From: Halomonas cerina
Lineage (GTDB): Bacteria > Pseudomonadota > Gammaproteobacteria > Pseudomonadales > Halomonadaceae
Direction of reading: 5' to 3'
Assembly: GCF_014192215.1 (NCBI RefSeq)
Contig: NZ_JACHXP010000003.1
Span: 119,744 to 151,743 of the forward strand
Length of the DNA: 32,000 nt
The notes beneath the pieces were generated by a model. The model searched no databases and was not told where the DNA came from. It saw nothing but the letters and a program-made list of their open reading frames with translations. How positions within the stretch are numbered: the first letter of the stretch is position 1; each line of letters begins with the position of its first letter. Both the position numbers and the translations under genes were made by a program. Positions 3,792 through 22,921 of this stretch are shown here, in pieces.

Positions 3792-3809
3792 TCATCCTCC
3801 TCCGTCGAG

Positions 3810-4778: not shown

Positions 4779-4787
4779 GGCAGGGCC

Positions 4788-6674
<1,887 letters not shown>

Positions 6675-6696
6675 GGAGCACCTCGGCTATGTCTAT

Positions 6697-6712
6697 TTGG
6701 TAAGTTTACCAA
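6697..6712. promoter_or_regulatory. Candidate operator upstream of edd (perfect palindrome TTGGTAA-gt-TTACCAA)
   Basis: A 7-2-7 perfect inverted repeat lies 23-38 nt upstream of the edd start, in an AT-rich 100-bp intergenic region. The core TGGT-N6-ACCA resembles GntR-type operators. Confidence 0.4.
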
Positions 6713-6774
6713 TATCTATTGCGATATTCCGCCTATCCTAGTCGGTTTTCCGCCTGTTTTGTAGTTTTATTACC

Positions 6775-8172
6775 TTAAAGTCCAAGAAGCCGGATCAGCC
6801 ATCGGCGGTAGGGCGGGTTGAGCAGCCCGACGGCGCTGCGTCGCGACTGGAGGAAGACACCGCGTGCCAGGCTGAAGCGCAAAAAGCCTGCCTCCCCCCG
6901 GTAGGCCCCCATACCGCTCGCGCCGACACCGCCGAAGGGCAGAGCAGGCACGGCGTTGTGCCACAGAGTGTCATTGAACACCACGCCACCGGAGTGGGTC
7001 TCTTCCAGCAGGCGTCGGCGCAGATCGGCATCGTCGGTGAAGGCATACAGCGCCAGCGGGCGAGGACCCTCGGTGACCCGCGCCAGGGCGGTGTCCAGGT
7101 CACGAACGCCGATCACCGGCAGCCAGGGACCGAAGACCTCCTCGTGCATGATCGCCAGGCCTTCGTGCGGGTCGATCACCAGGGTGGGCGGCAACTTGGC
7201 GCCACCGTCGGGGAGAGCGACGTGCTCTCCCAGTTCGATCACCCGGCAGCCGTGGTCGCGGGCCTCGTCGAGCATGGCCGTGAGGCGCCGGCGCTGCGCC
7301 TCACCCGGCACGGCGCTGTAGTCCTCGCTGGCGCTGCCCCGGGGGTAGAACGTCGTCACCGTCCGCGTCATGGCATCGATGAACTCGACGAGCCGGGAGG
7401 CTTCGATCAGGACGTGGTCCGGGGCGATGCAGGTCTGGCCGGCGTTGAGCCACTTGCCGAAGGCGATGCGCTCGGCGGCCTTCTCCAGGTCGGCGTCGGT
7501 CCCGATGATGACCGGGGTCTTGCCCCCCAGTTCCAGGGTAACCGGGGTCAGGTTGGCAGCGGCGGCGCGGGCCACCTCGTGCCCGACACGCGCGCTGCCG
7601 GTGAACAGCAGGTGATCGAAGGGCAGGGCCGAGAAGGCGCGCGCCACGTCGGTGTCGCCGGTCACCACGCAGAGTTCGTCCGGCGCGAAGTAGCGCTCGG
7701 CCAGCCGTGCCATCAGGGCACTGGTGGCCGGCGTCTGTTCGCCGGGCTTGATCATCACCCGATTGCCGGCGGCGAGGGCATCCACCGCCGGCATCCAGGC
7801 CAGGTGCCAGGGATAGTTGGACGGCGCGATGATACCCACCACCCCCAGTGGCTGGCGGTACACTCGGGCCCGCCCGGGGAGCAGGCGCCAGGGCACCGTG
7901 GCGCGCTTCGGGCGCATCCAGCGCCTGAGGTGCCGCCTGGCGTAGTGAATGGCCATCCGCAGGGGCGTGATCTCCGCCAGCCGTGTCTCGGCGTCGGCGC
8001 GGTGGCCGAAGTCCTGGCGGATGGCCTGAATGATCTCGTCGCGGTGGCGTCGGGTCATGGCATCGAGGCGGGCGAGGCGGTCGTGGCGACGCCGGGCCGA
8101 GGGGAAGGGCTCCACGGCGAAGGCTCGGCGCTGGGCCTCCAGACGAGCCGACAGCGCTTGGGCGTCGGACAT
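6775..8172 (-). CDS. NAD(P)-dependent aldehyde dehydrogenase (coniferyl-aldehyde-dehydrogenase-like subfamily)
   Basis: ELGGKTP and the catalytic region NAGQTCIAPD are present. The N-terminus MSDAQALSARLEAQRRAF is typical for this subfamily. The start is set at ATG 8172 with a GGGAGA SD. The 93-aa upstream extension in the track is Arg/Gly-rich junk. Confidence 0.85.
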   Translation of the reverse strand: MSDAQALSARLEAQRRAFAVEPFPSARRRHDRLARLDAMTRRHRDEIIQAIRQDFGHRADAETRLAEITPLRMAIHYARRHLRRWMRPKRATVPWRLLPGRARVYRQPLGVVGIIAPSNYPWHLAWMPAVDALAAGNRVMIKPGEQTPATSALMARLAERYFAPDELCVVTGDTDVARAFSALPFDHLLFTGSARVGHEVARAAAANLTPVTLELGGKTPVIIGTDADLEKAAERIAFGKWLNAGQTCIAPDHVLIEASRLVEFIDAMTRTVTTFYPRGSASEDYSAVPGEAQRRRLTAMLDEARDHGCRVIELGEHVALPDGGAKLPPTLVIDPHEGLAIMHEEVFGPWLPVIGVRDLDTALARVTEGPRPLALYAFTDDADLRRRLLEETHSGGVVFNDTLWHNAVPALPFGGVGASGMGAYRGEAGFLRFSLARGVFLQSRRSAVGLLNPPYRRWLIRLLGL

Positions 8173-8286
8173 GCGCGTCTCCCATGAGCAGCGGGTTGGA
8201 AGGGACGGGAAGGTCTGCGCACAATGTAGGCGCTTTGCCGGTGCCTTGTCAGCCGGCCCTCCCCGCCGCCTGCCCCTGGAGCGTCC

Positions 8287-9423
8287 ATGCCTCGACTGGT
8301 CCTGACCGAGTTGCCTGCCATCGCCAGGGTCCCGGCCGCGGCCTGGAATACCTTGGTTGGTGATGACCATCCCTTCCTGCGCCATGAGTTTCTGCACGCC
8401 CTGGAGGCCAGCGGCGCCGTGAGTCGGGCCACCGGCTGGGCACCGCGCCACCTTACTCTATGGCGAGGCGAGACCCTGGTGGGTCTGTTGCCTTACTATC
8501 ACAAGTACCATTCCTTCGGCGAGTACGTCTTCGATTGGGCCTGGGCCGAGGCCTGGGAGCGTGCCGGGGGTCGCTACTATCCCAAGGGGCTAACCGCGAT
8601 TCCCTATACGCCGGCGCCCGGGCCTCGGCTGGCACTGGCGCCGGATCTCGATCCTCGCGAGGCCCGCGGGGTGCTGGCCAGGGCCTGGGAAGAGGATGAG
8701 TCACTCTCGAGCTGGCACCTGCTGTTCGCCGAGGAGGCCGAGGTGGCCGGCTGGCAGGCGGCCTGTCCCCACCTGATCGCCCGCCACGGCGTGCAGTTCC
8801 AGTGGCAGGATCGGGGCTACGGCGACTTCACAGGCTTTCTGTCTGCCCTCACCTCGAAGCGGCGCAAGGCGATCCGCCGCGAGCGACGCCTGGTGACGGA
8901 GCAGGGGCTTACCCTGCACCGGCTCGAGGGGGAAGCGATTGGCGTCGAGGACATGGCTCACTTCCATCGCTGCTATGAGCTCACCTACCTCGAGCGGGGA
9001 CGCCGGGGCTACCTCAACCGTGACTTCTTCGAGCGGCTGCGCCACACCCTGCCTGGGAGCCTGGTGCTGATTCAGGCCCGGCTCGAAGGTCGGCCGGTGG
9101 CCGCCGCGCTCTGCCTGCAGGGGCGCCATACCCTCTATGGCCGCTACTGGGGCAGTGAGGTGGTGGCCGACTGCCTGCACTTCGAGGCCTGCTACTACCA
9201 GGGCATCGAGCACTGCCTCGCACAGGGATTGACCCGCTTCGATCCGGGCACCCAGGGCGAGCACAAGCTCAGCCGGGGCTTCGCGCCGCGACGGCTGACC
9301 TCGCTGCACCACATCGTCGACCCCGGTCTGCGCGTGGCGGTGGCCCGCTTCTGCCGCGAGGAGGCCGAGCATGTCGAGGCCTACTGCCGGGAGGCGGAAA
9401 AAGTGCTGCCATTCCGGGTGTAA
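8287..9423 (+). CDS. FemAB-like/GNAT-fold protein of the DUF482 (peptidoglycan biosynthesis/recognition) family
   Basis: HPFLRHEFLHALEASGAV, YHKYHSFGEYVFDWAWA and YYPKGLTAIPYTP look like the conserved DUF482 N-terminal region as I recall it. A GGAG SD is present. Confidence 0.7.
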   Translation: MPRLVLTELPAIARVPAAAWNTLVGDDHPFLRHEFLHALEASGAVSRATGWAPRHLTLWRGETLVGLLPYYHKYHSFGEYVFDWAWAEAWERAGGRYYPKGLTAIPYTPAPGPRLALAPDLDPREARGVLARAWEEDESLSSWHLLFAEEAEVAGWQAACPHLIARHGVQFQWQDRGYGDFTGFLSALTSKRRKAIRRERRLVTEQGLTLHRLEGEAIGVEDMAHFHRCYELTYLERGRRGYLNRDFFERLRHTLPGSLVLIQARLEGRPVAAALCLQGRHTLYGRYWGSEVVADCLHFEACYYQGIEHCLAQGLTRFDPGTQGEHKLSRGFAPRRLTSLHHIVDPGLRVAVARFCREEAEHVEAYCREAEKVLPFRV

Positions 9424-9659
9424 TTCTCATCCCCTGCTATGCTGAAGTTTGCAGAATGTAACTGTAGTGTTTCTCAGTGTGTGTGATTGGACACTTCGGC
9501 GAAGTCAAGAGCCGGGCAGATGCCGGCCAACGAACGACGCGTCAGCGCGTGGTCCGAAGCGTGTCATTCCCGATGCCCTCGGCAGGGTCATGTAGCGCGG
9601 TGGTTCACGTGGGCGACGGGATCCGCGTTCGTTGCCAACAAGGGATGAGGTGAGTCGCG

Positions 9660-11048
9660 ATGGAAAGAGAGCAACGTTGCTGGCTGGTGGCCGAGGATGC
9701 GCTGGATATCAACCATCTGGAAGCGAAAGTGAGTGCCCTGGGCTGGGACGTGCAGCGCCTGCTGGCACCGCTGTCGGACTGTTGTCTGGAGACTGAGAGT
9801 GACGGTGGTGTCGGCCTGGTCCAACTCGAGGGCATGTCGGATGCTCAACTGGGTCAGCTGGAGCCGTTGATCCTGCGGAGTCACTGCCCGTGGCTGGCCA
9901 TTGCCGCGAGCGACACCCTGAGGGATGCCGACAGGCATCGCCTGGTAGCCACGCTGTGCGTCGGGTTCATGGAGCCCGATGTCGAGGTCGCCGAGCTCGA
10001 CTGCCTGATGCGGCGGGCACTCGCCCTGTCACGGCTCCAGCAGGATGGCCTGCGTGACGATGTCGCGACCGACAGGCGCTCCGACAGCGATGAGAGCGAG
10101 ATGGTCGGCACCACGCCAGCTATGTGGGAGCTCTTCCAGACCATCCGCAAGGTGGCGGCGGTGGAGGCACCGGTCCTCATTAGTGGCGAGTCCGGTACGG
10201 GGAAGGAGCTGACGGCACAGGCCATCCATGAGCGCTCGCCCCGTGCATCGGCCGGCTTTCATGCCATCAACTGTGGTGCACTGCCGGACCATCTGATCCA
10301 GTCGGAACTCTTTGGGCATGAGAAGGGGGCCTTCACCGGTGCGGTACACAAGAAGATCGGCCGTATCGAGGCCACGGATGGCGGTACCCTGTTTCTCGAC
10401 GAGATCGGCGACCTTCCCCTGGAGTTGCAGGTCAACCTGTTGCGCTTTCTCGAGACGCGATGTATCCAGCGCGTCGGCGGGTTGGAAGACATTCCCGTGG
10501 ATGTGCGCATCATTGCCGCCACCCACGTCGATCTAGAGAAGGCCGTCGAGGAGAGACGTTTTCGCGAGGATCTCTATCATCGTCTCAACGTGCTGCAGAT
10601 CAAGGTGCCGCCCCTGCGGGAGCGCCAGGAGGACATCGAGATCCTGGCCCGCTATTTCTTCGAGCGCTTCGCCAACGAGAAGTCCAGCCGCTTGAAGGGC
10701 TTCTCGCGTGAAGCCCTGCTGGTCATGCGCCAGTATCCCTGGCCCGGCAACGTCCGTGAGCTGATCAACCGCATTCGCCGCGCGATGGTCATGTGCGAAA
10801 ATCGGCTCATCCAGCCCGTGGATCTGGGCATCGACCGCCGCAAGGCCCCCCGCCATCTCATGACGCTCGATGAGGCGCGCGATCATGCCGAGCGTGAGGT
10901 GCTGGTCGCCGCTCTGGGACGCAACAAGCACAAGGTTCATCAGGCAGCCCGGGAACTGGGGGTGTCGCGCGTCACCATCTATCGCCTGATGGAGAAGCAC
11001 GGGTTGGCCCGCTCGCCGACGGCCGCACCGGCGACAGATTCAGATTAG
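9660..11048 (+). CDS. Sigma-54-dependent transcriptional activator (bEBP) with a receiver-like but degenerate N-terminal domain
   Basis: Present are Walker A GESGTGKE, the sigma-54 contact loop ELFGHEKGAFTGA, Walker B GGTLFLDEIGD and a C-terminal Fis-type HTH AARELGVSRVTIYRLMEKHGL. A GAGGTG SD is present. Confidence 0.9.
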   Translation: MEREQRCWLVAEDALDINHLEAKVSALGWDVQRLLAPLSDCCLETESDGGVGLVQLEGMSDAQLGQLEPLILRSHCPWLAIAASDTLRDADRHRLVATLCVGFMEPDVEVAELDCLMRRALALSRLQQDGLRDDVATDRRSDSDESEMVGTTPAMWELFQTIRKVAAVEAPVLISGESGTGKELTAQAIHERSPRASAGFHAINCGALPDHLIQSELFGHEKGAFTGAVHKKIGRIEATDGGTLFLDEIGDLPLELQVNLLRFLETRCIQRVGGLEDIPVDVRIIAATHVDLEKAVEERRFREDLYHRLNVLQIKVPPLRERQEDIEILARYFFERFANEKSSRLKGFSREALLVMRQYPWPGNVRELINRIRRAMVMCENRLIQPVDLGIDRRKAPRHLMTLDEARDHAEREVLVAALGRNKHKVHQAARELGVSRVTIYRLMEKHGLARSPTAAPATDSD

Positions 11049-11104
11049 CCACTGGCATGCCTGAACTCCTTCCTTCCTCAGCGCTGCCGATCCGTGTCTT
11101 CCTC

Positions 11105-11134
11105 AGGCCTGTCTGCTCCCTGACAGGCCTTTTT
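11105..11134 (+). terminator. Rho-independent terminator after the bEBP gene
   Basis: Stem AGGCCTGTC (11105-11113), an 8-nt loop and stem GACAGGCCT (11122-11130), followed by TTTT. Confidence 0.75.
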
Positions 11135-11267
11135 CGTGCTCGGGCCGAGGCCCTTCTGCCGCGCGCCTGACTCACGCCTGTGACACTTGGTCGATCATTT
11201 TCTAACTGTTTGATTTTTTTATATTTTACGGCGTATAACGCGTGCTGCACCCGTGGCAGGCGTGTTC

Positions 11268-11287
11268 ATGTAACAAAAGAGTTACAT
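11268..11287. promoter_or_regulatory. Candidate upstream activating sequence, perfect palindrome ATGTAAC-N6-GTTACAT
   Basis: This 7-6-7 perfect inverted repeat is centred about 62 bp upstream of the -24 GG, the position expected for a bEBP enhancer. Confidence 0.5.
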
Positions 11288-11292
11288 TCTAT

Positions 11293-11305
11293 TATCAGCA
11301 ATTTG
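11293..11305 (+). promoter_or_regulatory. IHF-like site between UAS and sigma-54 promoter
   Basis: TATCAGcaatTTG has one mismatch to WATCAA-N4-TTR. It is embedded in a very AT-rich stretch of an otherwise GC-rich genome. Confidence 0.35.
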
Positions 11306-11338
11306 ATTTTTCTTTAATAAAAACAATAACCTACAAGT

Positions 11339-11354
11339 TGGCACGCCTATTGCT
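11339..11354 (+). promoter_or_regulatory. Sigma-54 (-24/-12) promoter
   Basis: TGGCACG-CCTA-TTGCT is a perfect match to TGGCAC-N5-TTGCW. It lies 47 nt upstream of the first SD-preceded ATG (11401) and directly downstream of a bEBP gene. Confidence 0.85.
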
Positions 11355-11400
11355 CCTTAAATTGTAAAAAAGAGTGACTGAACGTTTTGGAGCTGCCGAC

Positions 11401-11781
11401 ATGCCCTTCCCCTCCTGCCCCATATGCCTTCATGCCAGCCCTCATCGGGCATGCCGCCTGTTCGGGCTGCTGCTGGGCCTCGCCATGGGGGTCGGGGGAG
11501 CGAGCGCCCAGGCACATGGCGTGGTCGGTGATACCGCAACCGGCGAGGGGGCGGCCGACGCGAGCGGGCTGGTGCGCCTGGATGATGAGAGGCTTGCAGC
11601 GATTCGCGGGCGCTACCTCGACGCTCGGAGCTTCACCGATCAGGACGGTGACTTCGTGATCCTCTGGGACGAGCGTCCCCCGGGAAACGCCGGCGGCAAA
11701 GGGCAGGGCAATGGCAAGTCGCTCTCCTCCGGGCTCGGCAATCAACAGCACACCCGCGTAACCAGCCATAGGGAGCAGTGA
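11401..11781 (+). CDS. Small secreted protein of unknown family (first gene of the sigma-54 operon)
   Basis: A GGAG SD lies 8 nt before ATG 11401. The signal-peptide-like N-terminus is RACRLFGLLLGLAMGVGGASAQA. Motifs LDDERLAAIRG and GDFVILWD are shared with the next ORF. The track start at 11374 would leave almost no 5' UTR after the predicted TSS. Confidence 0.55.
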   Translation: MPFPSCPICLHASPHRACRLFGLLLGLAMGVGGASAQAHGVVGDTATGEGAADASGLVRLDDERLAAIRGRYLDARSFTDQDGDFVILWDERPPGNAGGKGQGNGKSLSSGLGNQQHTRVTSHREQ

Positions 11782-11783
11782 AC

Positions 11784-12290
11784 ATGAGCGACCGCCATCT
11801 ACATTTCTCGCGTACCGCCCGCCGCTGGCTGCTGGTGGTGGCCCTGGCCACACCGGCCGCGGGCCTGCAGGCCGACGATGGCACCTCGGGGGCGCGGCTG
11901 AATCCCGGTGTCCTGCCCGGTGACATCGTCATCCTTCGCGATGTCGATTCGGCCGTATACGGCCAGGTCGAGCGCCATGCCGGGGAGATCACGTCGCGGG
12001 TCAATGCCCGCCATGGCGCCCTGGAGGCCCAGCAGCGGCTGATCGGCATCCAGGCTATCTCCCTCAGCGACGAACGGGCCGCCAGCATCCACGGCGGTGT
12101 GCAGGGATCGATACACCATCTACATCGGGCGCTGGGGACCCATCCGGGCATGGGCGCCCGCGCCACCGGCAGCGCCAGTCGGGCGCCATCCGTGCTCGGG
12201 GGAAGCGCTGGCGGCAGCGTTCGCTCGCTCACCTCGGGCATCGCCGACACCCTCGATGGGGCGCTGGCACCGCTGACAGGAGGGCGCTGA
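11784..12290 (+). CDS. Small secreted protein of unknown family (second gene)
   Basis: A GGGAG SD lies 8 nt before ATG 11784, and the start is 2 nt after the upstream stop. The signal peptide is RRWLLVVALATPAAGLQA. Motifs GDIVILRD and LSDERAASIHG are present, with a Gly/Ser/Ala-rich C-terminal tail. Confidence 0.6.
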   Translation: MSDRHLHFSRTARRWLLVVALATPAAGLQADDGTSGARLNPGVLPGDIVILRDVDSAVYGQVERHAGEITSRVNARHGALEAQQRLIGIQAISLSDERAASIHGGVQGSIHHLHRALGTHPGMGARATGSASRAPSVLGGSAGGSVRSLTSGIADTLDGALAPLTGGR

Positions 12291-12292
12291 GC

Positions 12293-12703
12293 ATGGATGA
12301 CGGGACGAGCACCATCCACACGTTGCTCCAGCTGGCAAGCCACCTAGAGGACCTCACGCCTCATCAGGTCAGCACCAAGATTCAGGACCACGCCTTTCGG
12401 CAGTCACAGGGCTGGCTGTCGGTCAATCAGACGGCGGGTCTCGGTAATGTACGGAGCCACCCCGAAGGGGGTGTTCTGAGCATCTCGGCCAGCCACCTCA
12501 ACGACACCATCCTGCAGCAGGTGCTGGCCGACAGGCAGGGGCTGAATGGTGACCGCGATGACCGAACGGATCTCTCGCGCAGGATCGAGGTCGACGAGTC
12601 GATCTTCGAGGGAGCCCGCGGCGTCATCCAGGTCAACCAGTCAGCCGGCACGGGGAACGCTACCCGCCACAGCTTTAGCATGTCCATACAGCTCGCGCGG
12701 TAG
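12293..12703 (+). CDS. Leaderless 136-aa protein with two degenerate copies of the amyloid-repeat core
   Basis: An AGGAGG SD is present and the ATG is 2 nt after the upstream stop. GWLSVNQTAGLGNVRSH (aa 40-56) and GVIQVNQSAGTGNATRH (aa 110-126) share G-x3-VN-x2-AG-x-GN with the repeats of the next gene. No N-terminal signal peptide is visible. Confidence 0.6.
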   Translation: MDDGTSTIHTLLQLASHLEDLTPHQVSTKIQDHAFRQSQGWLSVNQTAGLGNVRSHPEGGVLSISASHLNDTILQQVLADRQGLNGDRDDRTDLSRRIEVDESIFEGARGVIQVNQSAGTGNATRHSFSMSIQLAR

Positions 12704-12755
12704 GTAGCGACATCGCAATGCAACGAAACGCGTTGGTTCATTCAGGAGAAAGCTC

Positions 12756-13913
12756 ATGACCACCTTCAAGAAAGCACCGCTGGCCTTGGCCGTTACCGCA
12801 CTGATGGCCACCCCCTACGCCCTGGCCGATGGCGTCAACAACAGCTTCATCGGCAGCTACAACAAGTTCGACACCGACAGCACCATCGACTCCGATTTCG
12901 ACAATCGGATCGATGTGGAACTGCGCCACGACTCGGACACCTACAAGGACTTCTACGTCAATGTCTGGACCTTTGACCCGGCGCGCCACTACTCCGGGGC
13001 CACCGTGGACAGCAAGCAGCTGATCAACTACGCCGACGTGACCAACCGCATGGCCGAGAACAACGCCACCCTGAATGGCAATGCACTGGAAGGTGCCTCG
13101 GGCAACGTGGGCGTCAACGTGGCGGCCGGTGACAGCAACAGTCAGGCCAATGACGCTGCCCTGTCGGCCTCGGATGCCGAACGGGTATTCGGCCAGGCCG
13201 CGGCCTTCTCGGCCCAGTCCTCCTCCAACACCTATGTGGCAAGCACCGGTAGCCCCAACAACGCCACTCTCGCCGATTATGCCCTGCAGGGCGCCACCGG
13301 CAATATCGGCGTCAACGTGGCCGCCGGGGTCGGCAACGCCCAGCAGAACTCGCTGGCCGCCTCCTCCAATACCCGGTCCGGCTCTGCCGATGCCACCACC
13401 GGTGGCGTGCAGACCGCCTACTACAACTACAGCCGCAGCCAGGGCCACACCGAGACCTTCACCAACCGGGTCGGCGTCAGGGTGTCCGGGGTGATGGTGG
13501 GCGGCTACCTCGGCGGCGGCAGCGGCGGCTACGCGGGCACCTGGGAGCAGACCAACCAGGTCTACCCGGAGATCTGGCTGGGCGGCTCCGAGGCAAGCGG
13601 CCACCCGGGGGGCTCCACCTACGTGGGTCACCTGGACTTCGATGGCAACAGTGCCAACACCGACCAGTTCGCCGGCACGGAGCGAGGCCGCCTCGGCTTC
13701 CGCGAGGCGGGCCTGATGGCCATGGGCGGCACCCTGTCCGGCGGCGTGACCACCACCAACACCGTCTATATCGCCGCCGAGAACAACGCCACCCTGAGCG
13801 ACTACGCCCTGTTGGGCGCCAGTGGCAATATCGGCGTGAACGTGGCCGCGGGCAACAACAACCTGCAGCGCAACTCCCTGGCCATCGCCTCGGCCACGGG
13901 TGGAACGCAGTAA
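12756..13913 (+). CDS. Secreted FapC-like repeat protein (putative functional-amyloid or adhesin major subunit)
   Basis: An AGGAGA SD and the Sec signal peptide MTTFKKAPLALAVTALMATPYALA are present. There are three 37-aa repeats of the form NNATL-x3-AL-x-GA-x-GN[VI]GVNVAAG-x2-N-x-Q-x-N. The protein is Cys-free and rich in N/Q/G/A/S/T. Confidence 0.8.
   Translation: MTTFKKAPLALAVTALMATPYALADGVNNSFIGSYNKFDTDSTIDSDFDNRIDVELRHDSDTYKDFYVNVWTFDPARHYSGATVDSKQLINYADVTNRMAENNATLNGNALEGASGNVGVNVAAGDSNSQANDAALSASDAERVFGQAAAFSAQSSSNTYVASTGSPNNATLADYALQGATGNIGVNVAAGVGNAQQNSLAASSNTRSGSADATTGGVQTAYYNYSRSQGHTETFTNRVGVRVSGVMVGGYLGGGSGGYAGTWEQTNQVYPEIWLGGSEASGHPGGSTYVGHLDFDGNSANTDQFAGTERGRLGFREAGLMAMGGTLSGGVTTTNTVYIAAENNATLSDYALLGASGNIGVNVAAGNNNLQRNSLAIASATGGTQ
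13059..13169 (+). repeat. Amyloid-type imperfect repeat R1 (aa 102-138)
   Basis: The R1 sequence is NNATLNGNALEGASGNVGVNVAAGDSNSQANDAALSA. Confidence 0.85.
13257..13367 (+). repeat. Amyloid-type imperfect repeat R2 (aa 168-204)
   Basis: The R2 sequence is NNATLADYALQGATGNIGVNVAAGVGNAQQNSLAASS. Confidence 0.85.
13782..13892 (+). repeat. Amyloid-type imperfect repeat R3 (aa 343-379)
   Basis: The R3 sequence is NNATLSDYALLGASGNIGVNVAAGNNNLQRNSLAIAS. It is also similar to R2 at the DNA level. Confidence 0.85.
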
Positions 13914-13954
13914 ACCCTCGGCCGGGGCCTTCCCGGCCGACGGTGCCACATGCC

Positions 13955-13990
13955 ACCCGGCCTGCCGAGCAGGCCGGGTGTTTGTTGTGG
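13955..13990 (+). terminator. Hairpin terminator/attenuator after the repeat-protein gene
   Basis: A 10-bp stem ACCCGGCCTG / CAGGCCGGGT with a 5-nt loop is followed by GTTTGTTGT. A second GC hairpin (TCGGCCGG...CCGGCCGA) lies at about 13919-13939. Confidence 0.6.
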
Positions 13991-14157
13991 TGCGCCAGGC
14001 ATGGCGTGAGGCCTGTGACTGTAAGGACTGGTCAGGCACGCTGCGCTGACGACGACCAACGGAGGGGTGGTCTACACTTGGCTAGCTTAATACGCTAGTC
14101 ATCGGTAACCAGCAATATACACAGCCGAGGTCCGGCAGACAGTAGAGGCACAAGGAG

Positions 14158-15243
14158 ATGAGTGTGGAAAAAACAGATGTTTTCATGACGAAGCGGGTGC
14201 CACCCCTCTCCCTCTTCCTCATGGCGGCCTCCTTCGGAGGGGCCACGGCAGTGCAGGCGCAGATGACCGGTGACGACGGCGAGGTGGTGCGTCAGGCCCG
14301 ACCCAGCCAGAGCGTGGAGAATGTGCTGAGGGAGGAACACGCGCTCTTCTCGGACCGGCTGACCATCGAACCGGGCATCAACTACTCCTACTCCGATCGC
14401 TCCCAGCTGGCGCTGCGCGGTTTCCTGGCCTTGGATGCCATCTTCCTGGGCAATATCGATGTCGATACGGTCGAAAGCCACATCACTACCTTCGATATCA
14501 ATACCCGCTACGGCCTGACCGACCGGCTCGAGGTGGGCCTCAATCTCCCCTTCGTCTATCGCAGCAGCACCTACCAGTCGATCGGGGCCGATAATGATAC
14601 TGAGCAGAATGAAGAAACCTCGGTGGATGAGTCGGATGTAGGGGATATCAGCCTGACCTTCGCCTACCGGATGCTGCCGGAGACCGAGACCCGCCCCGAC
14701 CTGGTATGGAACTTCGCCGTCCGGGCGCCCACCGGTACAGACCCCTACGGCATTGCGACCAGAGAAGCGGGGGACAATCTATTTGTACCCACCGAACTAC
14801 CCACGGGCAATGGCGTCTGGGGGGTGAGCACGGGGATCTCGGCGCTCAAGACTCTGGACCCGGCGATCGTCTTCGCCAACCTGGGCTTCACCTACAACTT
14901 CGAGGAGAGCTTCGACGATATCTCGGCAACGGACGGCGACCAGCCGGGCGACGTCAAGCTGGGGGACAGCATCCGCGCCGGCTTCGGCACGGCCTTTGCT
15001 CTCAATGAACGCTTCAGCCTGTCGCTCTCCTATGCCCATGAGTACATCAAGAAGTCGGAAACGACGACCGAGGAAGGGGGGACCCGTGAGGTGATCGGCA
15101 GCGATGCCAATGTCGGGGTAATGAGCCTGGGCGGGACCTATGCCATGAGCGACAGTACCTCCCTCGTCACCAGCCTGGGGGTAGGGCTCACCGATGATGC
15201 CTCGGATGTCAGCCTGACCTTCCGCATGCCCTTCCAGATGTAA
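14158..15243 (+). CDS. Outer-membrane beta-barrel protein (transporter-like; occupies the position FapF has in fap operons)
   Basis: The signal peptide is KRVPPLSLFLMAASFGGATAVQAQ. Alternating amphipathic strands run throughout, with the motifs DVGDISLTFAYRML and VRAPTGTDPY, and the aromatic-rich C-terminus LTFRMPFQM. GTG 14164 (AGGAG SD 6 nt upstream) or ATG 14185 are alternative starts. Confidence 0.72.
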   Translation: MSVEKTDVFMTKRVPPLSLFLMAASFGGATAVQAQMTGDDGEVVRQARPSQSVENVLREEHALFSDRLTIEPGINYSYSDRSQLALRGFLALDAIFLGNIDVDTVESHITTFDINTRYGLTDRLEVGLNLPFVYRSSTYQSIGADNDTEQNEETSVDESDVGDISLTFAYRMLPETETRPDLVWNFAVRAPTGTDPYGIATREAGDNLFVPTELPTGNGVWGVSTGISALKTLDPAIVFANLGFTYNFEESFDDISATDGDQPGDVKLGDSIRAGFGTAFALNERFSLSLSYAHEYIKKSETTTEEGGTREVIGSDANVGVMSLGGTYAMSDSTSLVTSLGVGLTDDASDVSLTFRMPFQM

Positions 15244-15399
15244 GCCTTCCGGTACCCATGCGCGGCGGCGGGTCCTTCGGCCCGCCCTGCCAGCTACTTC
15301 TGATGTCCGCTTGCCTCGGGCCAGGCGTTGGCACCTCGCCGGCGCCCGGCACATGATGGCATAATGCCCGCCATTGAAACGTCATGGCGGAAGGCCCGG

Positions 15400-15738
15400 A
15401 TGCTGAAGTGGCTGTCCATCCTGCTTATCACCCTGCTTGTCCTGCTGCAGTATCGCCTGTGGCTGGGGGAAGGCGGGTTCAATGAGCTGACCGAGCTGCG
15501 CCAGCGGGTGGCGGCCATGGAGGCCGAGAACCGCCCCATGCGCGAGCGCAATGCGCGTCTCGCCGCCGAGGTGGTCGACCTCAAGACGGGGCTGGCGGCC
15601 ATCGAGGAGCGCGCCCGCAGCGACATCGGCATGGTGCGCCGCGACGAGCAGTTCTTCTGGGTGCCCGGCGTGGCGGCGCCGGCCGATAAGCCGGGCCACG
15701 GCGAACCGGCGGCCCAGCCGGGTAAGGGGGCGCCATGA
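15400..15738 (+). CDS. ftsB: Cell division protein FtsB
   Basis: MLKWLSILLITLLVLLQYRLWLGEGG forms a TM segment followed by a coiled coil, which is the typical FtsB layout. The gene lies immediately upstream of ispD, as in many gammaproteobacteria. Confidence 0.85.
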   Translation: MLKWLSILLITLLVLLQYRLWLGEGGFNELTELRQRVAAMEAENRPMRERNARLAAEVVDLKTGLAAIEERARSDIGMVRRDEQFFWVPGVAAPADKPGHGEPAAQPGKGAP

Positions 15739-16487
15739 GCGAGCGTCTCTGGCTGGTGGTGCCGGCAGCCGGCCGTGGCCGGCGCATGGGCGCTGCGCTG
15801 CCCAAGCAGTACCTGATGCTAACTGGGCGGCCCGTCCTGACTCATACGCTGGCGCGGCTGCATGCCGCCTTCCCCGAGGCCCGGCTCTGCCTCTGCCTGG
15901 ATCCCGACGATCACCACTTCGATCCTGCCTGGGTACCCTTTACCGACTGGCGTCGTGTCAACGGCGGGGCCGAGCGCGCCGACTCGGTGGCCAATGCCCT
16001 CGATGCCATCGCCTTGGAAGCCGACGCCAAGGACCTGGTGCTGGTCCACGACGTGGCCCGGCCCTGCGTGACTGTCGAGGACCTTGCCCGGTTGTACGCG
16101 GTCATCGCCGAGGATCCGGTAGGAGGACTCTTGGCCGCGCCGGTGGCCGATACCATGAAGCGTGACGATGGCGCCGGCCGGGTGGCCGCCACCGAATCCC
16201 GCGAGGGGCTCTGGCAGGCCCTGACACCCCAGGGATTTCGCTACGGGCTGCTGCGTCGCGCCCTGGCCATGGCGCCGGGCTGCGGTGTCCTGGTGACCGA
16301 CGAGGCCTCCGCCGTCGAGACCCTGGGCATGGCGCCCCGACTGGTGGCCGGGCGCCGCGATAACCTGAAGATCACTCACCCCGACGACCTGGCCCTGGCC
16401 GAGCGGGTGCTGGCCGCCCAGGTCGCCTCGGGGACAACACCGCCCGCTATCATCGGGCCGCCTGTCGAGAGGGAGAGAGACACATGA
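15735..16487 (+). CDS. ispD: 2-C-methyl-D-erythritol 4-phosphate cytidylyltransferase
   Basis: [20 protein letters not shown] is the N-terminal IspD motif. The start overlaps the ftsB stop as ATGA. Confidence 0.9.
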
Positions 16488-16975
16488 TGCGTATCGGTCA
16501 CGGCGTCGACGTGCACCGCTTCGGTGCGGGAGATCACCTGATGATCGGTGGCGTGGCCATTCCGTTCGACCAGGGGTTCGTCGCCCACTCCGACGGCGAC
16601 GTCCTGCTGCACGCGATCTGCGATGCCCTGCTGGGAGCCTGTGGGCTGGGCGACATCGGCCGTCATTTCCCGGATACCGACCCGGCCTGGGCCGGTGCCG
16701 ACAGCCGGGCCCTGCTGCGCCACGTGGTGGCGCTGGTGCACCGGGCGGGCTTCCGGCTCGGCAACCTGGATGCCACCGTGATCGCTCAAGCACCCAGAAT
16801 GGCGCCTCACCTCCCGGCCATGGCCGCCCACCTCGCCGAGGATCTTCAGGTCTCGAGCGCGGCGGTCAACGTCAAGGCCACCACTACCGAGCGGCTGGGC
16901 TTCATCGGCCGCGGTGAAGGCATCGCCGCCGAGGCCGTGGCCCTGCTGATTGCCACGGAGGCGGCCGGTGACTGA
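16484..16975 (+). CDS. ispF: 2-C-methyl-D-erythritol 2,4-cyclodiphosphate synthase
   Basis: [12 protein letters not shown] and [18 protein letters not shown] are the IspF signature. The start overlaps the ispD stop as ATGA. Confidence 0.93.
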
Positions 16976-18089
16976 TGCCATCGACTGGCCACCGGCCTGG
17001 CCCCGGGTGCTGGATGCACGCTTCGGCGCTCCGGCCGCCGGGGGCTATCGGGCCACACCAGAGGCGTTCCGGGTCGAGGAGTGCCTGGACTTCGCACCCG
17101 AGGGTCACGGCGAGCATCTCTGGCTGTGGATCGAGAAGCGCGACCTGACCACCGCCATGGGGGCCCGCCAGCTGGCCTGGGCCTGTGGGGTCTCCCCCCG
17201 GGATGTCGGCTATGCCGGCATGAAGGACCGCTCGGCGGTCACCCGGCAGTGGTTCTCGGTGCACCTGCCGGGGCGCGAGGCACCCGCTGACCTCGAAGCC
17301 GCACTCGCGAGCGCCTCGCTCACCTTGCTGGCCCAGACGCGGCACCCACGCAAGCTCAAGCGCGGCGTACACCGCGCCAATCGCTTCCGGCTGCGTCTCA
17401 CCGGCCCGGCGCTGGAGGATCCCGGCTTCGCCGAGCGCTGGGCCTGGCTCTGCCAGCATGGGGTGGCGAACTATTTCGGCCCCCAGCGCTTCGGGCCCGA
17501 AGGTCGTAACCTGCACCGTGCGGTCAGGGTGCTGGCCGGCGGCTGGCGCAAGCGGGATGACCGCGAGGGCATGCTGCTCTCGGCGGCGCGCAGCTTCCTG
17601 TTCAACACGCTGCTGGCCGAACGCGTCCGCGAGGGCAACTGGGCCACGCCGCTGCCGGGGGAGGTGGTGGTCCTCGATGGCAGTGCCAGCCAGTTCACCG
17701 CCGAGGCCGTCGATGCCTCGCTGCGCGAGCGTGCCGAGCGCCTCGACCTGCACCCCTCGGGGATCCTCTGGGGCATCGGTGGCTCGGTGGCCCAGGGCGA
17801 GGCGCTGGCTCGTGAGCGAGACCTGGCAGATCACTACCCGGCACTCTGTGCCGGCCTCGAGCGGGCCGGCGTACGGCTCGGTCGACGCCCCCTGCGCCTG
17901 CGGCTGGAGGCGCCGAGGTTCGAGGCCGGCGAGGGCGAGGCCTGGCTGTCCTTCACGCTGGCACGAGGCGGCTTCGCCACGGCCGTGCTGCGCGAGCTGA
18001 TCGCCCACCCCAGCCTGAGTTTTCGAACGCCCCCCGCGGGGCCCCTGCAAGGAGGCGAGGATGCGACGTCTGCTGCTGTCCAACGATGA
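16968..18089 (+). CDS. truD: tRNA pseudouridine(13) synthase TruD
   Basis: [22 protein letters not shown] and [17 protein letters not shown] are TruD motifs. The start is set at GTG 16968 because of a GGAGG SD 6 nt upstream. The track ORF starts at TTG 16950. Confidence 0.88.
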
Positions 18090-18807
18090 CGGAGTACATG
18101 CCCCGGGCCTGCGGGCGCTGCATGACGCCCTGATCGCCCATGCGCGCCTGCGCGTGGTGGCGCCGGACCGCGACAAGAGCGGCGCCAGCAACTCCTTGAC
18201 GCTGACCCGGCCCCTGGCCCTTACGGCCATGGAGAACGGCTTCTACAGTGTCGATGGTACCCCCGCCGACTGTGTCTATCTGGGCGTCAACGGGGTCTGG
18301 GACGAGCGTCCCGACCTGGTGATATCGGGCATCAACCACGGTGGCAACTTGGGCGACGACGTGCTCTATTCGGGCACGGTGGCGGCCGCCATGGAAGGGC
18401 GCAGCCTGGGCATGACGGCCATCGCCATGTCGCTGATGGGCAGTCGCCACTTCGACAGTGCGGGGCGCGTGGCGGCTAGCCTGGTGGGCGCGGCGGATCA
18501 GCTGTCGCTGCCGCCACGCAGCCTGCTTAATGTCAATGTGCCGGACCTGCCCTGGAGCGAGATCCGTGGCTTTCGCGTCACTCGCCTGGGGTTTCGCGGC
18601 CCGGCGTCGCAGCCGGTGGAGGTCCGCGACCCGCGGGGGCGTAAGCGTTACTGGATCGCCCCCGTAAGCGAGAATGCCGACGATGGGCCGGATACCGACT
18701 TCGCCGCCGTCGAGAACGGCTATGTCTCCATCACGCCGCTGCAGACCGACTTGACCCAACATGCAGCGTGCGACGACGTGCAGGACTGGCTGAATGCGTT
18801 CACCTGA
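18061..18807 (+). CDS. surE: 5'/3'-nucleotidase SurE
   Basis: [20 protein letters not shown] is the SurE N-terminal motif. An AAGGAGG SD is present. The gene overlaps the truD 3' end by 29 nt. Confidence 0.92.
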
Positions 18808-18838
18808 GCTGGAGCCCGATCGCCTCAGGGGCATCGGC

Positions 18839-19474
18839 ATGACCTCGCAACGAACCCGCGATCGCCTGGTGGCACGCCTGGCGAGACAGGGCATCCGCCA
18901 TCGGCGGGTGCTGGAGGTGCTGGCCACCGAGCCGCGCCACCTGTTCCTCGACGAGGCCCTGGCGCATCGTGCCTACGAGGATACCTCGCTGCCCATTGGC
19001 CACGGCCAGACCCTCTCCCAACCGTGGATGGTGGCCCGCATGACCGAACTGGTGGTGCAGGAGGTACCCGGGCGGGTCCTGGAGATCGGCACCGGCTCCG
19101 GCTATCAGACCCTGGTGCTCTCGCGTCTGGTGAAGGAACTCTGGTCGGTGGAGCGGATCAATGCCCTGCACCGGCGGGCCGGCCACCGGCTCGGCCAACT
19201 CGGCATCGACAACGTGCACCTGCGCCTGGCCGATGGCGGACATGGCTGGCCGGAGGCCGCCCCCTTCGATGTCATCCTGCTCACCGCCTGTGCCGGCGAG
19301 CTGCCCGAGCCCCTGTTGGCTCAGCTGGCGGAGCAGGGCGTGCTGATCGCGCCGCTGGCGGATCGCACCGGCTGCCAGTGGCTGACCCGGGTGCGTCGCC
19401 ATGGCGAGCGTTTCGAGCGGCAGCGCCTGGAATCGGTCCGCTTCGTGCCCTTGCTGGAAGGCGTCATTCGTTGA
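18839..19474 (+). CDS. pcm: Protein-L-isoaspartate O-methyltransferase
   Basis: MTSQRTRDRLV, LPIGHGQTLSQPWMVARMTEL and the SAM motif VLEIGTGSGYQT are present. The start is chosen to match the typical gammaproteobacterial Pcm N-terminus. Confidence 0.9.
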   Translation: MTSQRTRDRLVARLARQGIRHRRVLEVLATEPRHLFLDEALAHRAYEDTSLPIGHGQTLSQPWMVARMTELVVQEVPGRVLEIGTGSGYQTLVLSRLVKELWSVERINALHRRAGHRLGQLGIDNVHLRLADGGHGWPEAAPFDVILLTACAGELPEPLLAQLAEQGVLIAPLADRTGCQWLTRVRRHGERFERQRLESVRFVPLLEGVIR

Positions 19475-19487
19475 AAGGAGTCAGCTG

Positions 19488-20468
19488 TTGAAGCGTCATC
19501 TCGGTATCTTTCTGCGCGGAGCCGGCATGGGGGCCGCCGACGCCGTGCCCGGCGTCTCCGGCGGCACCATCGCCTTCGTCACCGGCATCTACGAGGAACT
19601 GATTCACACCATCCGACAGTTCGGGCCCTCTGCCATCGGGGCCTGGCGCCGATGGGGGCTGCGCGGGCTGGTCGCCCATCTCAATCTGTCCTTCGTGGTG
19701 CCGCTGCTGACCGGCATCCTGGCCAGCCTGGTCAGCGTCGCGCATCTGGTGGTGTGGCTGATGGACGACCATCCGCTGCTGCTCAACGGCTTCTTCTTCG
19801 GCCTGGTAGCCGCGTCGGTGCTGGTGGTCGGCCGTCATCCCACTGACTGGCGGTGGTGGCATCTGCTGCCCCTGGTGGTCGGGCTGCTGCTGGCTCAAGC
19901 CCTGCCATCGCTAATGCCGATGGTCGCCCGCCTCGGCAGCCCCGACCTGATCCTGGTGGTGGGGGGCGCCATCGCCATCAGCGCCTTGCTGCTGCCCGGC
20001 GTGTCGGGCAGCTTCCTGCTGCTGGCCATGGGGCTCTACGGCACCGTGATGGACGGCATCCGCAGCTTCGATGTGGGCCTGCTCGGCCTCTTCGGCCTCG
20101 GCTGTCTGGTTGGTCTGTTCGTCTTCTCGCGTCTGCTCTCCTGGCTGCTGGCGTATCACCATACCGCCACCCTGCAGTTGCTGGTGGGCTTCATCGTCGG
20201 CTCCCTGCCGGTACTCTGGCCCTGGCGTGAGCTGGTACGCTACCAACTGGGCCCGGAGGGCCAGATGATCCCGCTCGATTACCGTTATCTTACCCCGGGG
20301 GACTTCACCGTCCTGACCGGCGACCCTGCGCGACTGCCGGCGGTGGTGGCGCTGATGCTGGCCGGTGTCGCCCTGGTGTTGCTGATCAGCCGGGTGAACC
20401 GCCCGGCAGCGACGACACCCGCCGGAACACGACCTGGTGCTGACAAGGAGGAAGGCTCCAATGTATAG
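19488..20468 (+). CDS. DUF368-family polytopic membrane protein (family implicated in undecaprenyl-phosphate translocation)
   Basis: GAGMGAADAVPGVSGGTIAFVTGIYEEL and a second PGVSGSFLLLAMGLY repeat are characteristic of DUF368. The start is set at TTG 19488, which has an AGGAG SD 7 nt upstream. The track ORF start inside pcm is unlikely. Confidence 0.75.
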   Translation: MKRHLGIFLRGAGMGAADAVPGVSGGTIAFVTGIYEELIHTIRQFGPSAIGAWRRWGLRGLVAHLNLSFVVPLLTGILASLVSVAHLVVWLMDDHPLLLNGFFFGLVAASVLVVGRHPTDWRWWHLLPLVVGLLLAQALPSLMPMVARLGSPDLILVVGGAIAISALLLPGVSGSFLLLAMGLYGTVMDGIRSFDVGLLGLFGLGCLVGLFVFSRLLSWLLAYHHTATLQLLVGFIVGSLPVLWPWRELVRYQLGPEGQMIPLDYRYLTPGDFTVLTGDPARLPAVVALMLAGVALVLLISRVNRPAATTPAGTRPGADKEEGSNV

Positions 20469-21558
20469 GATATTGCTGATTTCGGGCCTGACCCTGGCCC
20501 TGTCCGGCTGCACCGTCAACCAGAGCAAGGCGCCGCCGGTCCAGGTGCGCGACCTCTCGATGAGCCGTTCGACCGCCACGCCCGGCGAGTACACCGTGAA
20601 GGCCGGTGACACCCTCTACGGCATCGCCTGGCGCCACAACATGGACTATCGTGACCTGGCCCGCCTGAACCGTATCGGTCCGCCCTACCGTATCCAGACA
20701 GGGCAGACCCTGGTGCTGGGAGGCAATGGGCCGGCGGAAAGCGACGCGGCCCCGGCGCGGGAGGCCGGCGGCGCCGTGGCCACGGCGCTTGGCGGCACGG
20801 CGGCCGTATCCGGGGGAGGGAACGAGTCCCTGGACTGGGTGCTGCCCGATGCGCCGCACGAATCGGACGAGCGTGCCGAGGCCGAGAAAGAGGACCCGGC
20901 CCCCGCGTCGGCGCAGACCGACGAGGCATCAGGCCCGGGGCCGGTAGTCAGCCTGGACAGCCCGGGGGCCGATGGTCGTCTGAGCGAGCGTGACCGGGCC
21001 GAGCGTGAGCGCCGTGAGGCCGGCGAGGCGTCCACCGGGAACAGGACGCGCTCGGCGGCCACCAATGATGCCCCGGCCTCGGCTGAGCCGCCTGCCGATA
21101 AACCCGCCAGGCCGGATGCCGGTGCCGCGGTAGCCGGGGAGGCGGACAGCGAGCGACCCCGCGAACGGCGTTACACGCCGGTCAAGGAAGTGGCCTGGCG
21201 GTGGCCCGCCGATGGCGACGTCGTGGGGGCCTTCGGTGAGGGCAGCACCATTACCGCCGGCATTGATATCGCCGGACAAAAGGGGCAACCTGTCAAGGCA
21301 GCGGGGCCGGGAATCGTCGTCTATGCGGGCAGTGGTGTACGAGGTTACGGCAACCTCATCCTGCTCAAGCACAACGACCAGTTCCTCAGCGCCTACGCAC
21401 ACAATGACTCCCTGCGCGTCAAGGAGAACGACGTGGTCGAGGCCGGTGACGTGATCGCCATCATGGGCGACAGCGATGCCGAAGATGTCAGGCTTCATTT
21501 CGAGGTCCGCAAGGATGGTCAGCCCCAGGATCCCCTGGAGTTTCTGCCCCCGCGCTGA
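20461..21558 (+). CDS. nlpD: Murein hydrolase activator NlpD (lipoprotein, LysM + degenerate M23 domain)
   Basis: The lipobox LALSGC, the LysM region YTVKAGDTLYGIAWRH...YRIQTGQTLVL and the C-terminal M23-like region GIDIAGQKGQPVKAAGPGIVVYAG...LHFEVR are present. An AGGAGG SD is present. Confidence 0.9.
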   Translation: MYRILLISGLTLALSGCTVNQSKAPPVQVRDLSMSRSTATPGEYTVKAGDTLYGIAWRHNMDYRDLARLNRIGPPYRIQTGQTLVLGGNGPAESDAAPAREAGGAVATALGGTAAVSGGGNESLDWVLPDAPHESDERAEAEKEDPAPASAQTDEASGPGPVVSLDSPGADGRLSERDRAERERREAGEASTGNRTRSAATNDAPASAEPPADKPARPDAGAAVAGEADSERPRERRYTPVKEVAWRWPADGDVVGAFGEGSTITAGIDIAGQKGQPVKAAGPGIVVYAGSGVRGYGNLILLKHNDQFLSAYAHNDSLRVKENDVVEAGDVIAIMGDSDAEDVRLHFEVRKDGQPQDPLEFLPPR

Positions 21559-21673
21559 CTCGGCTCGACATCCCGCCTCGGGAGGCGTTCGTCACACAAT
21601 AATAATCTTGTGCACCGATCCTGTTCCTGCCGGTGCAGGCGGTGAGCAGTCGCAACCGATGGGGTAGCAGTCG

Positions 21674-22660
21674 ATGAGCATGCTTGAACGGGACCTTCAG
21701 GATGTGAATCTCGAGACGGCCGACGAGGTGGATGACGACGCCGTCGAGAGCGAGGCTGACGAGGAGGAGGCCGTGGATGCCGCGGCCTTCGAGAAGGCGT
21801 TGAACCGGGAGGACAAGCACTATCACCACAGCCTCGATGCCACGCAGATCTATCTCAACGAGATCGGTTTCTCGCCGCTGCTGACGCCCGAGGAAGAAGT
21901 TCACTACGGCCGCCTGGCCCAGCAAGGAGACCCCGCCGGTCGTGCGCGGATGATCGAGTCCAATCTGCGCCTGGTGGTCAAGATCGCCCGGCGCTACCTC
22001 AACCGCGGCCTGACGCTGCTGGACCTGATCGAGGAAGGCAATCTGGGCCTGATCCGGGCGGTCGAGAAGTTCGATCCGGAGCGAGGCTTCCGTTTCTCCA
22101 CCTATGCCACCTGGTGGATCCGTCAGACCATCGAGCGGGCGCTGATGAACCAGACGCGCACCATTCGTCTGCCGATCCATGTGGTGAAGGAACTCAACAT
22201 CTACCTGCGGGCCGCCCGCGAGCTGACCCAGAAGCTGGATCACGAGGCGACCGCGGAGGAGATCGCCGACTACCTCGACAAGCCGGTGGAAACCGTCAAG
22301 AAGATGATGGGGCTCAACGAGCGCATCTCCTCCGTCGACTATCCGGTAGGTAGCGAGAGCGACAAGCCCCTTATCGAGACCCTGGCCGACGACAACGATC
22401 TGGGACCGGAATCCACGCTGGTGGACGGCGACGTCAAGCAGCATGTGGACGACTGGCTGGCCGAGCTCACCGAGAAGCAGTGCGAAGTGGTGGTCCGTCG
22501 CTTCGGCCTGCGGGGGCATGAGGCCGCTACCCTCGAGCAGGTTGGCGAGGAGATCGGCCTCACCCGGGAACGGGTCCGCCAGATCCAGGTGGAGGCGCTC
22601 AAGAAGCTACGCCGCCTGCTCGACAAACAGGGGCTCTCGCTGGACGCCATCTTCGAGTGA
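21674..22660 (+). CDS. rpoS: RNA polymerase sigma factor RpoS
   Basis: Region 2 is [17 protein letters not shown]...[30 protein letters not shown] and region 4 is [24 protein letters not shown]. Conserved nlpD-rpoS synteny supports the call. Confidence 0.93.
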
Positions 22661-22681
22661 CGGCGCGTGATACCGGTCATG

Positions 22682-22713
22682 GCAGACAGCCAGGATGCGT
22701 CCTGGCTGTCTGC
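22682..22713 (+). terminator. Hairpin terminator after rpoS
   Basis: A perfect 14-bp stem GCAGACAGCCAGGA / TCCTGGCTGTCTGC has a 4-nt loop. The downstream U-tract is weak (ATTGTGG). Confidence 0.6.
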
Positions 22714-22921
22714 ATTGTGGCGGCAGGCGTGGCGAGTAAACGGCCGCTACCACCGGGTCCTGTTGTGTGGTGATCGCTGAGGGTGGTGCTTATTTCTGCA
22801 TTCTTGCCTTTTAGCGAATGTTATTTTGGCATTCATGGTTTAGTTTGGTCTATAAGGCCATGATTTATCCGGTTTATTGGTAAATAATGAGGCTTTTACC
22901 TGCCGCTGTCCGGAGTGCATG

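Follow-up and report, generated by a model that had tools for sequence, protein, structure and literature searches.

What becomes of the gene for the major subunit of a functional amyloid when genes that accompany it in related bacteria are no longer found at its side? The question is raised by a stretch of 32,000 nucleotides of Halomonas cerina DNA, here called the window, in which positions 12756-13913 hold a gene that a first-pass annotation described as encoding a FapC-like subunit of unusual architecture, with three 37-residue repeats, very asymmetric linkers and no cysteines. The answer given below is that the gene encodes the H. cerina orthologue of FapC, a genuine member of the Fap family, and to this reading, taken together with the rest of the explanation, we assign a probability of roughly 80%. 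It is the locus, and not the FapC protein, that is the anomaly: fapD and fapE are missing and fapB is truncated, which the first-pass annotation did not record.

A FapC Orthologue

The gene for the major functional-amyloid subunit, fapC (12756..13913; like all features given below by nucleotide position, on the + strand of the window), is a single open reading frame with an ATG start, and its product, MBB3189578, has 385 amino acids. Residues 1-24 form an N-terminal Sec signal peptide (MTTFKKAPLALAVTALMATPYALA, then DG), which was read from the sequence without a dedicated predictor and is kept in all 26 aligned homologues. They are followed by a poorly conserved N-terminal region (residues 25-78), predicted with low confidence and, as had been described, acidic and aromatic in composition. 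The three repeats, each of 37 residues, stand where they had first been placed: R1 at 13059..13169 (residues 102-138), R2 at 13257..13367 (residues 168-204) and R3 at 13782..13892 (residues 343-379). The lengths of the linkers L1 (29 residues) and L2 (138 residues), the Gly-rich stretch GGYLGGGSGGYAG, the complete lack of Cys and the tail of six residues (ATGGTQ) after R3 were recovered as well. That the repeats share many positions also stood, while the count had to be raised from 20 to 22 invariant positions out of 37. Pairwise, R1-R3 are identical at 23/37, 23/37 and 28/37 positions, to be compared with 10-12/37 for the best pair of 37-mers in 20 shuffles of the protein, and at the DNA level they are 74-76% identical. 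With the consensus NNATL...GNxGVNVAAGxxNxQxN, they are three imperfect repeats of about 37 residues that carry the FapC motif GN-x-G-x-N-x-AAG-x2-N-x-Q-x-N. The Cys-X-X-Cys motif by which the C-terminus of FapC is also recognised is not there (0 Cys).

The likeness to FapC is borne out by a family model, by the Pfam assignments of homologues and by solved fibrils. When the protein is aligned to the hidden Markov model of NCBIfam FapC (NF058558), the alignment runs over the full length with E 2e-50 and 172.3 bits, a score short of the model's curated threshold. The Pfam family FapBC (PF27129) is precomputed on 120 of the 120 homologues listed, among them a paralogue that is 94% identical; a local Pfam scan of FapC gave nothing relevant, only a sub-threshold match to PDGLE, and PF27129 appears to be absent from that copy of the database. 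A family profile made from 26 homologues matches the chains of two solved FapC fibrils, 9nqd and 9u4u, with E 2e-26 and 2e-24. An AlphaFold2 (AF2) model, built from an alignment of 104 sequences, has a mean predicted local distance difference test score (pLDDT) of 67, with 70-84 in the core, and its sole significant Foldseek match in the PDB is to FapC 9u4u_A (E 6e-6), with a template modelling score on the target of just 0.40. By their NCBIfam matches, the fap neighbours of the gene are FapA-like (weakly), FapB-like and FapF (E 7.5e-108). In the family as a whole, conservation is highest in the repeats, where the majority fractions are 0.74-0.81, against 0.41-0.56 for L2 and 0.34 for the N-terminal region; this is the opposite of a protein in which only the linker is conserved.

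Three Predicted Layers and an Insertion in the Third

Consider next the residues that precede the repeats. In the 104 homologues Q88, Q154 and Q219 are invariant, and N93, N159 and N224 are nearly so. The successive spacing of the three glutamines is 65-66 residues, and Q88 and Q154 stand 14 residues ahead of R1 and R2. Such pre-repeats ahead of the repeats have been described by Dueholm (PMC3684753). The AF2 model contains three equivalent five-strand units, formed by residues 79-139, by residues 145-205 and by residues 211-229 together with 343-380. Finally, the alignment with FapC of Pseudomonas sp. UK4 is collinear except for residues from about 231 to 340, which fall between UK4 residues 198 and 199. 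From the spacing of the glutamines, the units of the model and the UK4 alignment it follows that the protein would have three layers of about 66 residues, with an insertion of about 110 residues in layer 3. The asymmetry of the linkers is a product of how repeats and linkers were named: L1 and the first 26 or so residues of L2 belong to the layers. Each unit of about 66 residues consists of a Q-x4-N pre-repeat strand followed by the 37-residue repeat, and by homology to the solved UK4 fibril the three units would stack as the layers of a cross-beta solenoid.

The clade-specific insertion (13446..13775, residues 231-340) comes after the third Q-x4-N pre-repeat and before R3. AF2 predicts it, with a pLDDT of about 65-84, to be a long beta-hairpin with two strands of 34 residues each, 231-264 and 306-339. 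Nine of its residues are invariant or nearly so in the 104 homologues (Q265, Y270, W274, H283, G291, H292, D294, D296 and F315), and it carries the motifs GHxDxD and YPxxW. When residues 225-345 were searched exhaustively with phmmer, the matches were just 17 representative proteins, 15 of which are FapC-like in length and match at the corresponding position, and the insertion matches no family in Pfam or NCBIfam. Judged by these comparisons, it is an elaboration specific to the clade, conserved in Halomonadaceae, Guyparkeria and Halothiobacillus, and no known portable domain. The insertion would probably form a beta-hairpin arm that extends away from the core of the fibril, and the N-terminal region, too, would be placed outside the cross-beta core.

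Spacing and Lack of Cys Are Typical of the Clade

When the protein is compared with its relatives, the claim of an unusual architecture falls away. In 80 homologues for which three repeats were found by motif scan, the spacing from R1 to R2 has both its median and its minimum at 66 residues, the value of the window protein, and the spacing from R2 to R3 has a median of 174, to be compared with 175 in the window. There is no Cys in 101 of the 120 homologues listed, every named Halomonas protein included, so that the whole Halomonadaceae FapC clade has this spacing and is without Cys. The more distant relatives Guyparkeria and Halothiobacillus, which have the same architecture, keep a CxxC motif directly after R3, and so does Pseudomonas UK4 FapC, which ends CTVCAAGTGSKLAF. 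It follows that the Halomonadaceae lost the motif: the protein is free of Cys because the post-R3 CxxC known from other FapC proteins has gone throughout the lineage.

A missing CXXC and a long L2 are also found among Pseudomonas FapC proteins. The CXXC motif is lacking in FapC of P. putida and P. entomophila, and in P. putida F1 L2 has about 260 residues, compared with about 100 in other strains (PMC3684753). The loss of CXXC and the enlarged L2 of P. putida F1 thus mean that both supposedly unusual traits were already within the range of accepted FapC proteins, whose length is 377 +/- 143 residues with most of the variation coming from the linkers (PMC3792158). The idea that Cys residues occur jointly in FapC and in FapE is already published, and a disulfide between the two proteins has been proposed in Pseudomonas. 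The FapE of H. elongata is also free of Cys, and the loss of CXXC in FapC together with a Cys-free FapE in Halomonas fits this proposal.

Nor does the protein found a distinct FapC-like subfamily, as had been suggested. Table S1 of Dueholm et al. 2013 enters six consecutive genes of H. elongata DSM 2581 as FapA-F, among them, as FapC, the orthologue of the window protein. Halomonas FapC is therefore already known from the Fap catalogue of 2013, and the features that seemed odd are typical of its clade.

Two Deletions at the Window Locus

In the general scheme of these loci, activator, orfX, fapA, fapB, fapC, (fapD, fapE) and fapF are followed by ftsB-ispD. For comparison, 33 related loci were taken from an alignment-based scan of genome contigs, H. 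cerina not being among them, and the presence of Fap genes was scored by tblastn with the H. elongata Fap proteins. FapD lies between FapC and FapF in all 33 of these loci, and FapE is present in 26 of them, from Halomonadaceae and Methylohalomonas. In the 32-kb window, tblastn found no similarity to FapD and none to FapE. The place that fapD and fapE take up in relatives, about 1.7 kb, is here an intergenic stretch of 244 bp (13914..14157), and the distal, 3' half of this spacer between fapC and fapF can be aligned to the spacer that separates fapE from fapF in H. saccharevitans. As read from this alignment, about 1.7 kb has been cleanly deleted.

The second deletion is in fapB (12293..12703). 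Its product, MBB3189577, has 136 residues and matches NCBIfam FapB with E 4e-17 at positions 79-189 of 190, so that R2 and R3 are kept. Alignment to fapB of H. elongata, H. saccharevitans and H. daqiaonensis places the loss just after the start codon, which is itself kept: about 85 codons, encoding the signal peptide and R1, are deleted in frame. The full nucleator form of FapB, which has three repeats and a signal peptide, is missing from the window.

Misassembly was considered as a cause of the deletions and rejected. Both junctions lie within Logan contigs of SRR10053986 (window 3660-12633 and 13874-25243) which match the window at 100% identity and were probably made from the same reads.

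A Second fapC-fapD Locus

H. cerina has a second FapC, MBB3188829, the 94% identical paralogue mentioned above, and the accession next to it, MBB3188828, on the same 459-kb contig, is a FapD, the periplasmic C39 peptidase of Fap systems. Between the two copies of FapC there are 23 differences, which are concentrated in the variable turns of each repeat, at codons 107-112, 173-178 and 348-354, equivalent NNATLxxxALx positions in all three repeats. One exposed turn may thus be under diversifying selection or under relaxed constraint.

The SRR10053986 Logan contigs break on both sides of 12634-13873, which extends from the 3' end of fapB to the 3' end of fapC. Such breaks would be expected if this stretch of about 1.2 kb were repeated, by duplication or gene conversion, at the second fapC locus. 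When compared with H. saccharevitans, the H. cerina FapD and both FapC proteins are about 76% identical, and FapF, the activator and IspD 74-79%. Since the two sets have diverged equally, the duplication or relocation is recent and specific to the lineage. A homologue search did not return an H. cerina FapE, and as it also missed species that bear FapE by tblastn, it is uninformative on this point. No plasmid-borne fap cassettes were found by tblastn against PLSDB.

More than one fap cassette in a Halomonas genome is also seen in Halomonas sp. NO4, where an extra fapB-fapC-fapD-fapE cassette (L011 1525-4865), with no fapA or fapF of its own, stands directly upstream of a complete fapA-F operon.

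How the Reduced Locus May Work

We propose that fapD and fapE, as well as the 5' third of fapB, were deleted in H. cerina from an ancestral fap locus under sigma-54 control. The window FapC would still be made and, to judge from its signal peptide, exported via Sec, and then, by homology, through the adjacent FapF. We hold the chances to be about even that FapD, and presumably FapB and FapE too, act on it in trans from the second locus, as an analogy with other fap systems would allow: the extra fapBCDE cassette of Halomonas sp. NO4, which has no fapF of its own, is a precedent for components shared in trans, and fapF is sometimes found apart from the fap operon (Dueholm 2013, PMC3792158).

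Several points weigh against this account as a whole. The NCBIfam FapC score of 172 bits does not reach the curated cutoff of 195, the confidence of the AF2 model is no more than moderate, with the mean pLDDT of 67 given above and values under 50 for residues 14-74, and amyloid formation by Halomonas FapC is assigned by homology. The second locus is seen through its fapC and fapD proteins alone. In Pseudomonas, moreover, secretion of FapC requires FapD activity, and FapB and FapE are reported to be essential (PMC5557850), from which it follows that the window locus on its own is predicted to be incompetent. The low score would also suit a non-amyloid repeat adhesin or surface protein that is FapC-like in composition alone, as would the name "Adhesin" that homologues bear in UniRef, but the profile match to solved FapC (E 2e-26) is collinear, the fold matches 9u4u, and the operon holds FapA-, FapB- and FapF-like genes, to which relatives add FapD and FapE. 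We consider such a protein very improbable, and a non-FapC adhesin identity was dismissed on the profile match together with the fold match. More weight must be given to the proposal in the first-pass annotation that a distinct FapC-like subfamily uses its long L2 as a displayed functional domain. Such a domain might serve, for example, for adhesion or for the binding of a ligand or metal. The proposal agrees with the near-invariant residues of the insertion across 104 homologues, with a hairpin predicted outside the repeat layers at a pLDDT of about 65-84, with the label "Adhesin" on several homologues in UniRef, and with the suggestion of Dueholm 2013 that linkers are exposed and tune the properties of the fibril. 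The proposal is nevertheless unlikely when one considers that the insertion belongs to no Pfam or NCBIfam family, that it is confined to FapC-like proteins and to the same position in them (17 representatives), and that the protein does not stand outside FapC, given the H. elongata orthologue catalogued as FapC since 2013.

If the protein is accepted as FapC, there is still the question whether its locus works. The window locus may be a decaying remnant, in which, after a duplication or move of fapC-fapD(-fapE), both fapD and fapE disappeared from the ancestral site, along with the 5' end of fapB. That two independent deletions have struck one operon, both of them unique among 34 loci, that the truncated FapB has no signal peptide, that Pseudomonas is reported to need FapD, FapE and FapB for secretion, and that a near-identical paralogue adjoins fapD elsewhere in the genome are points in favour of such decay. 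Set against this, no damage is seen in fapC, fapA, orfX or fapF, nor in the activator or the sigma-54 promoter, the deletion in fapB is in frame, and FapF is seen at the window locus only; further, the 23 differences between the FapC copies spare the conserved core, unlike random decay. On balance we find a decaying remnant doubtful, and equally doubtful the fate that it would imply for the window fapC, whose product, though the copy is still intact, would be redundant or could not be exported, so that the gene would be turning into a pseudogene. Supply in trans from the second locus thus stays our preferred account of the reduced operon. A bolder reading, which we think decidedly unlikely, would make H. 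cerina a natural experiment, with a locus reduced to orfX-fapA-fapC-fapF and a signal-less FapB stub, a recently duplicated fapC-fapD module elsewhere, and a displayed beta-arm. If the window FapC were secreted without FapB, FapD and FapE in cis, Fap components might work fully in trans or, more radically, a Halomonas FapF without a coiled-coil might export independently of FapD and FapE, and the beta-arm of 110 residues in layer 3 would decorate the fibril as a displayed module.

Regulation and Neighbouring Genes

Upstream of the fap genes lies a gene for a sigma-54-dependent activator, or bacterial enhancer-binding protein (9660..11048, MBB3189574), with the Pfam domains Sigma54_activat (E 1e-69), AAA_lid_14 and HTH_8 and, in its N-terminal domain, a weak VpsR-like Pfam match. 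An activator upstream of the fap locus is conserved in Halomonas, and in H. elongata it has the same position. A perfect sigma-54 promoter, TTGGCACGCCTATTGCT (TGGCAC-N5-TTGC), is found at 11338..11354, upstream of orfX. In most related Halomonas loci, TGGCAC-N5-TTGC occurs on the + strand just upstream of orfX/fapA (e.g., L001 6311-6325), so that expression of fap in Halomonas appears to depend on RpoN. A very AT-rich stretch, about 11200-11340, precedes the promoter, and G+C is 0.58-0.65 across the fap locus (window 11000-15000), compared with about 0.70 in the flanking housekeeping genes.

The first gene after the promoter, orfX (11374..11781), encodes a small protein with a signal-peptide-like N-terminus; its start codon is uncertain, and Logan calls a protein of 126 residues. 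It is 31% identical to orfX of H. elongata by tblastn and matches nothing in Pfam or NCBIfam. In Halomonas fap loci it is kept between the promoter and fapA, and it is outside the published fapABCDEF scheme. The following gene (11778..12290) encodes a FapA-like protein, a putative periplasmic chaperone. Its match to NCBIfam chaperone_FapA is weak (E 3.9e-5, 24 bits compared with a cutoff of 110), and with the protein that takes the FapA position in H. elongata it shares 44% identity.

OrfX, FapA and the N-terminal part of FapE have in common the motif L-[SDT]-D-x2-[LA]-x2-[IML]-[RHQ]-G-[RGS], examples of which are LDDERLAAIRGRYLD, carried by orfX, and LSDDELSIMRGRFVD. It occurs in the window at 11578 (orfX) and 12063 (FapA), and in FapE, e.g., at L002 10268 and L003 9594. 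In six-frame translations of 28 loci, the regular expression matches genes for orfX, FapA and FapE only. When orfX is compared with FapE by BLASTP, there is no significant similarity, just the motif of 12-15 residues in common. The motif may be an element through which FapF or FapD recognises or targets all three proteins.

Downstream, a hairpin resembling an intrinsic terminator follows fapC at 13954..13990, with a stem of 12 bp, 10 of them GC pairs, and then a T-run, TTTGTTGTGG. The gene for the outer-membrane amyloid transporter FapF (14158..15243) encodes 361 residues (MBB3189579), which match NCBIfam FapF with E 7.5e-108 at positions 85-418 of 420 and with a score below the equivalog cutoff. 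The protein is 69-79% identical to those of Halomonas relatives, with 79% to H. saccharevitans. That the first 84 profile positions are unmatched suggests that the signal peptide and the N-terminal coiled-coil are missing. In Pseudomonas, FapF's N-terminal coiled-coil is reported to be critical for the secretion of FapC.

Significance and Comparison with Known Systems

Fap amyloids matter for the mechanics of biofilms and as engineerable nanomaterials. The gain made here is modest: the asymmetry of the linkers has a structural explanation, in three layers of 66 residues and a conserved insertion in the third. The stripped H. cerina locus offers a natural test of whether FapB, FapD and FapE must be supplied in cis, may be supplied in trans or can be dispensed with, and a FapC from a halophile, with an insertion predicted to be exposed on the surface, could serve as a useful scaffold.

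The closest comparison is with FapC of H. elongata DSM 2581, which stands at the same chromosomal site, is 62-63% identical, and has the same architecture and no Cys. The order there is femAB-like gene, sigma-54 activator, orfX, FapA, FapB, FapC, C39 FapD, FapE, FapF, ftsB and ispD. H. elongata thus keeps a full-length fapB (221 residues), fapD and fapE, while H. cerina lacks them at the same site.

With FapC of Pseudomonas sp. UK4 and P. aeruginosa (9NQD, 9U4U), the H. cerina protein shares a signal peptide, three imperfect GNxGxNxAAGxxNxQxN repeats, Q/N pre-repeats and a gene position after fapA and fapB and before fapF. Compared with the UK4 protein, it has no C-terminal CXXC, about 50 extra N-terminal residues and the insertion of about 110 residues in layer 3. 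The H. cerina system further differs from Pseudomonas fap by its sigma-54 promoter and dedicated activator, and from Pseudomonas FapF by lacking the first 84 profile positions, where the coiled-coil would be sited. FapC of P. putida F1 is alike in having no CXXC and a long L2 (about 260 residues), a likeness of length, the insertion search with its 17 representatives having given no evidence that this L2 is homologous to the Halomonas insertion; it differs in coming from another genus and from a complete fap operon. CsgA, the curli subunit of Escherichia coli, belongs to an unrelated sequence family, with five contiguous repeats without linkers and with other accessory proteins. What it has in common with FapC is that it is a secreted, Q/N-rich beta-solenoid amyloid of imperfect repeats, served by a dedicated outer-membrane exporter (PMC5557850).

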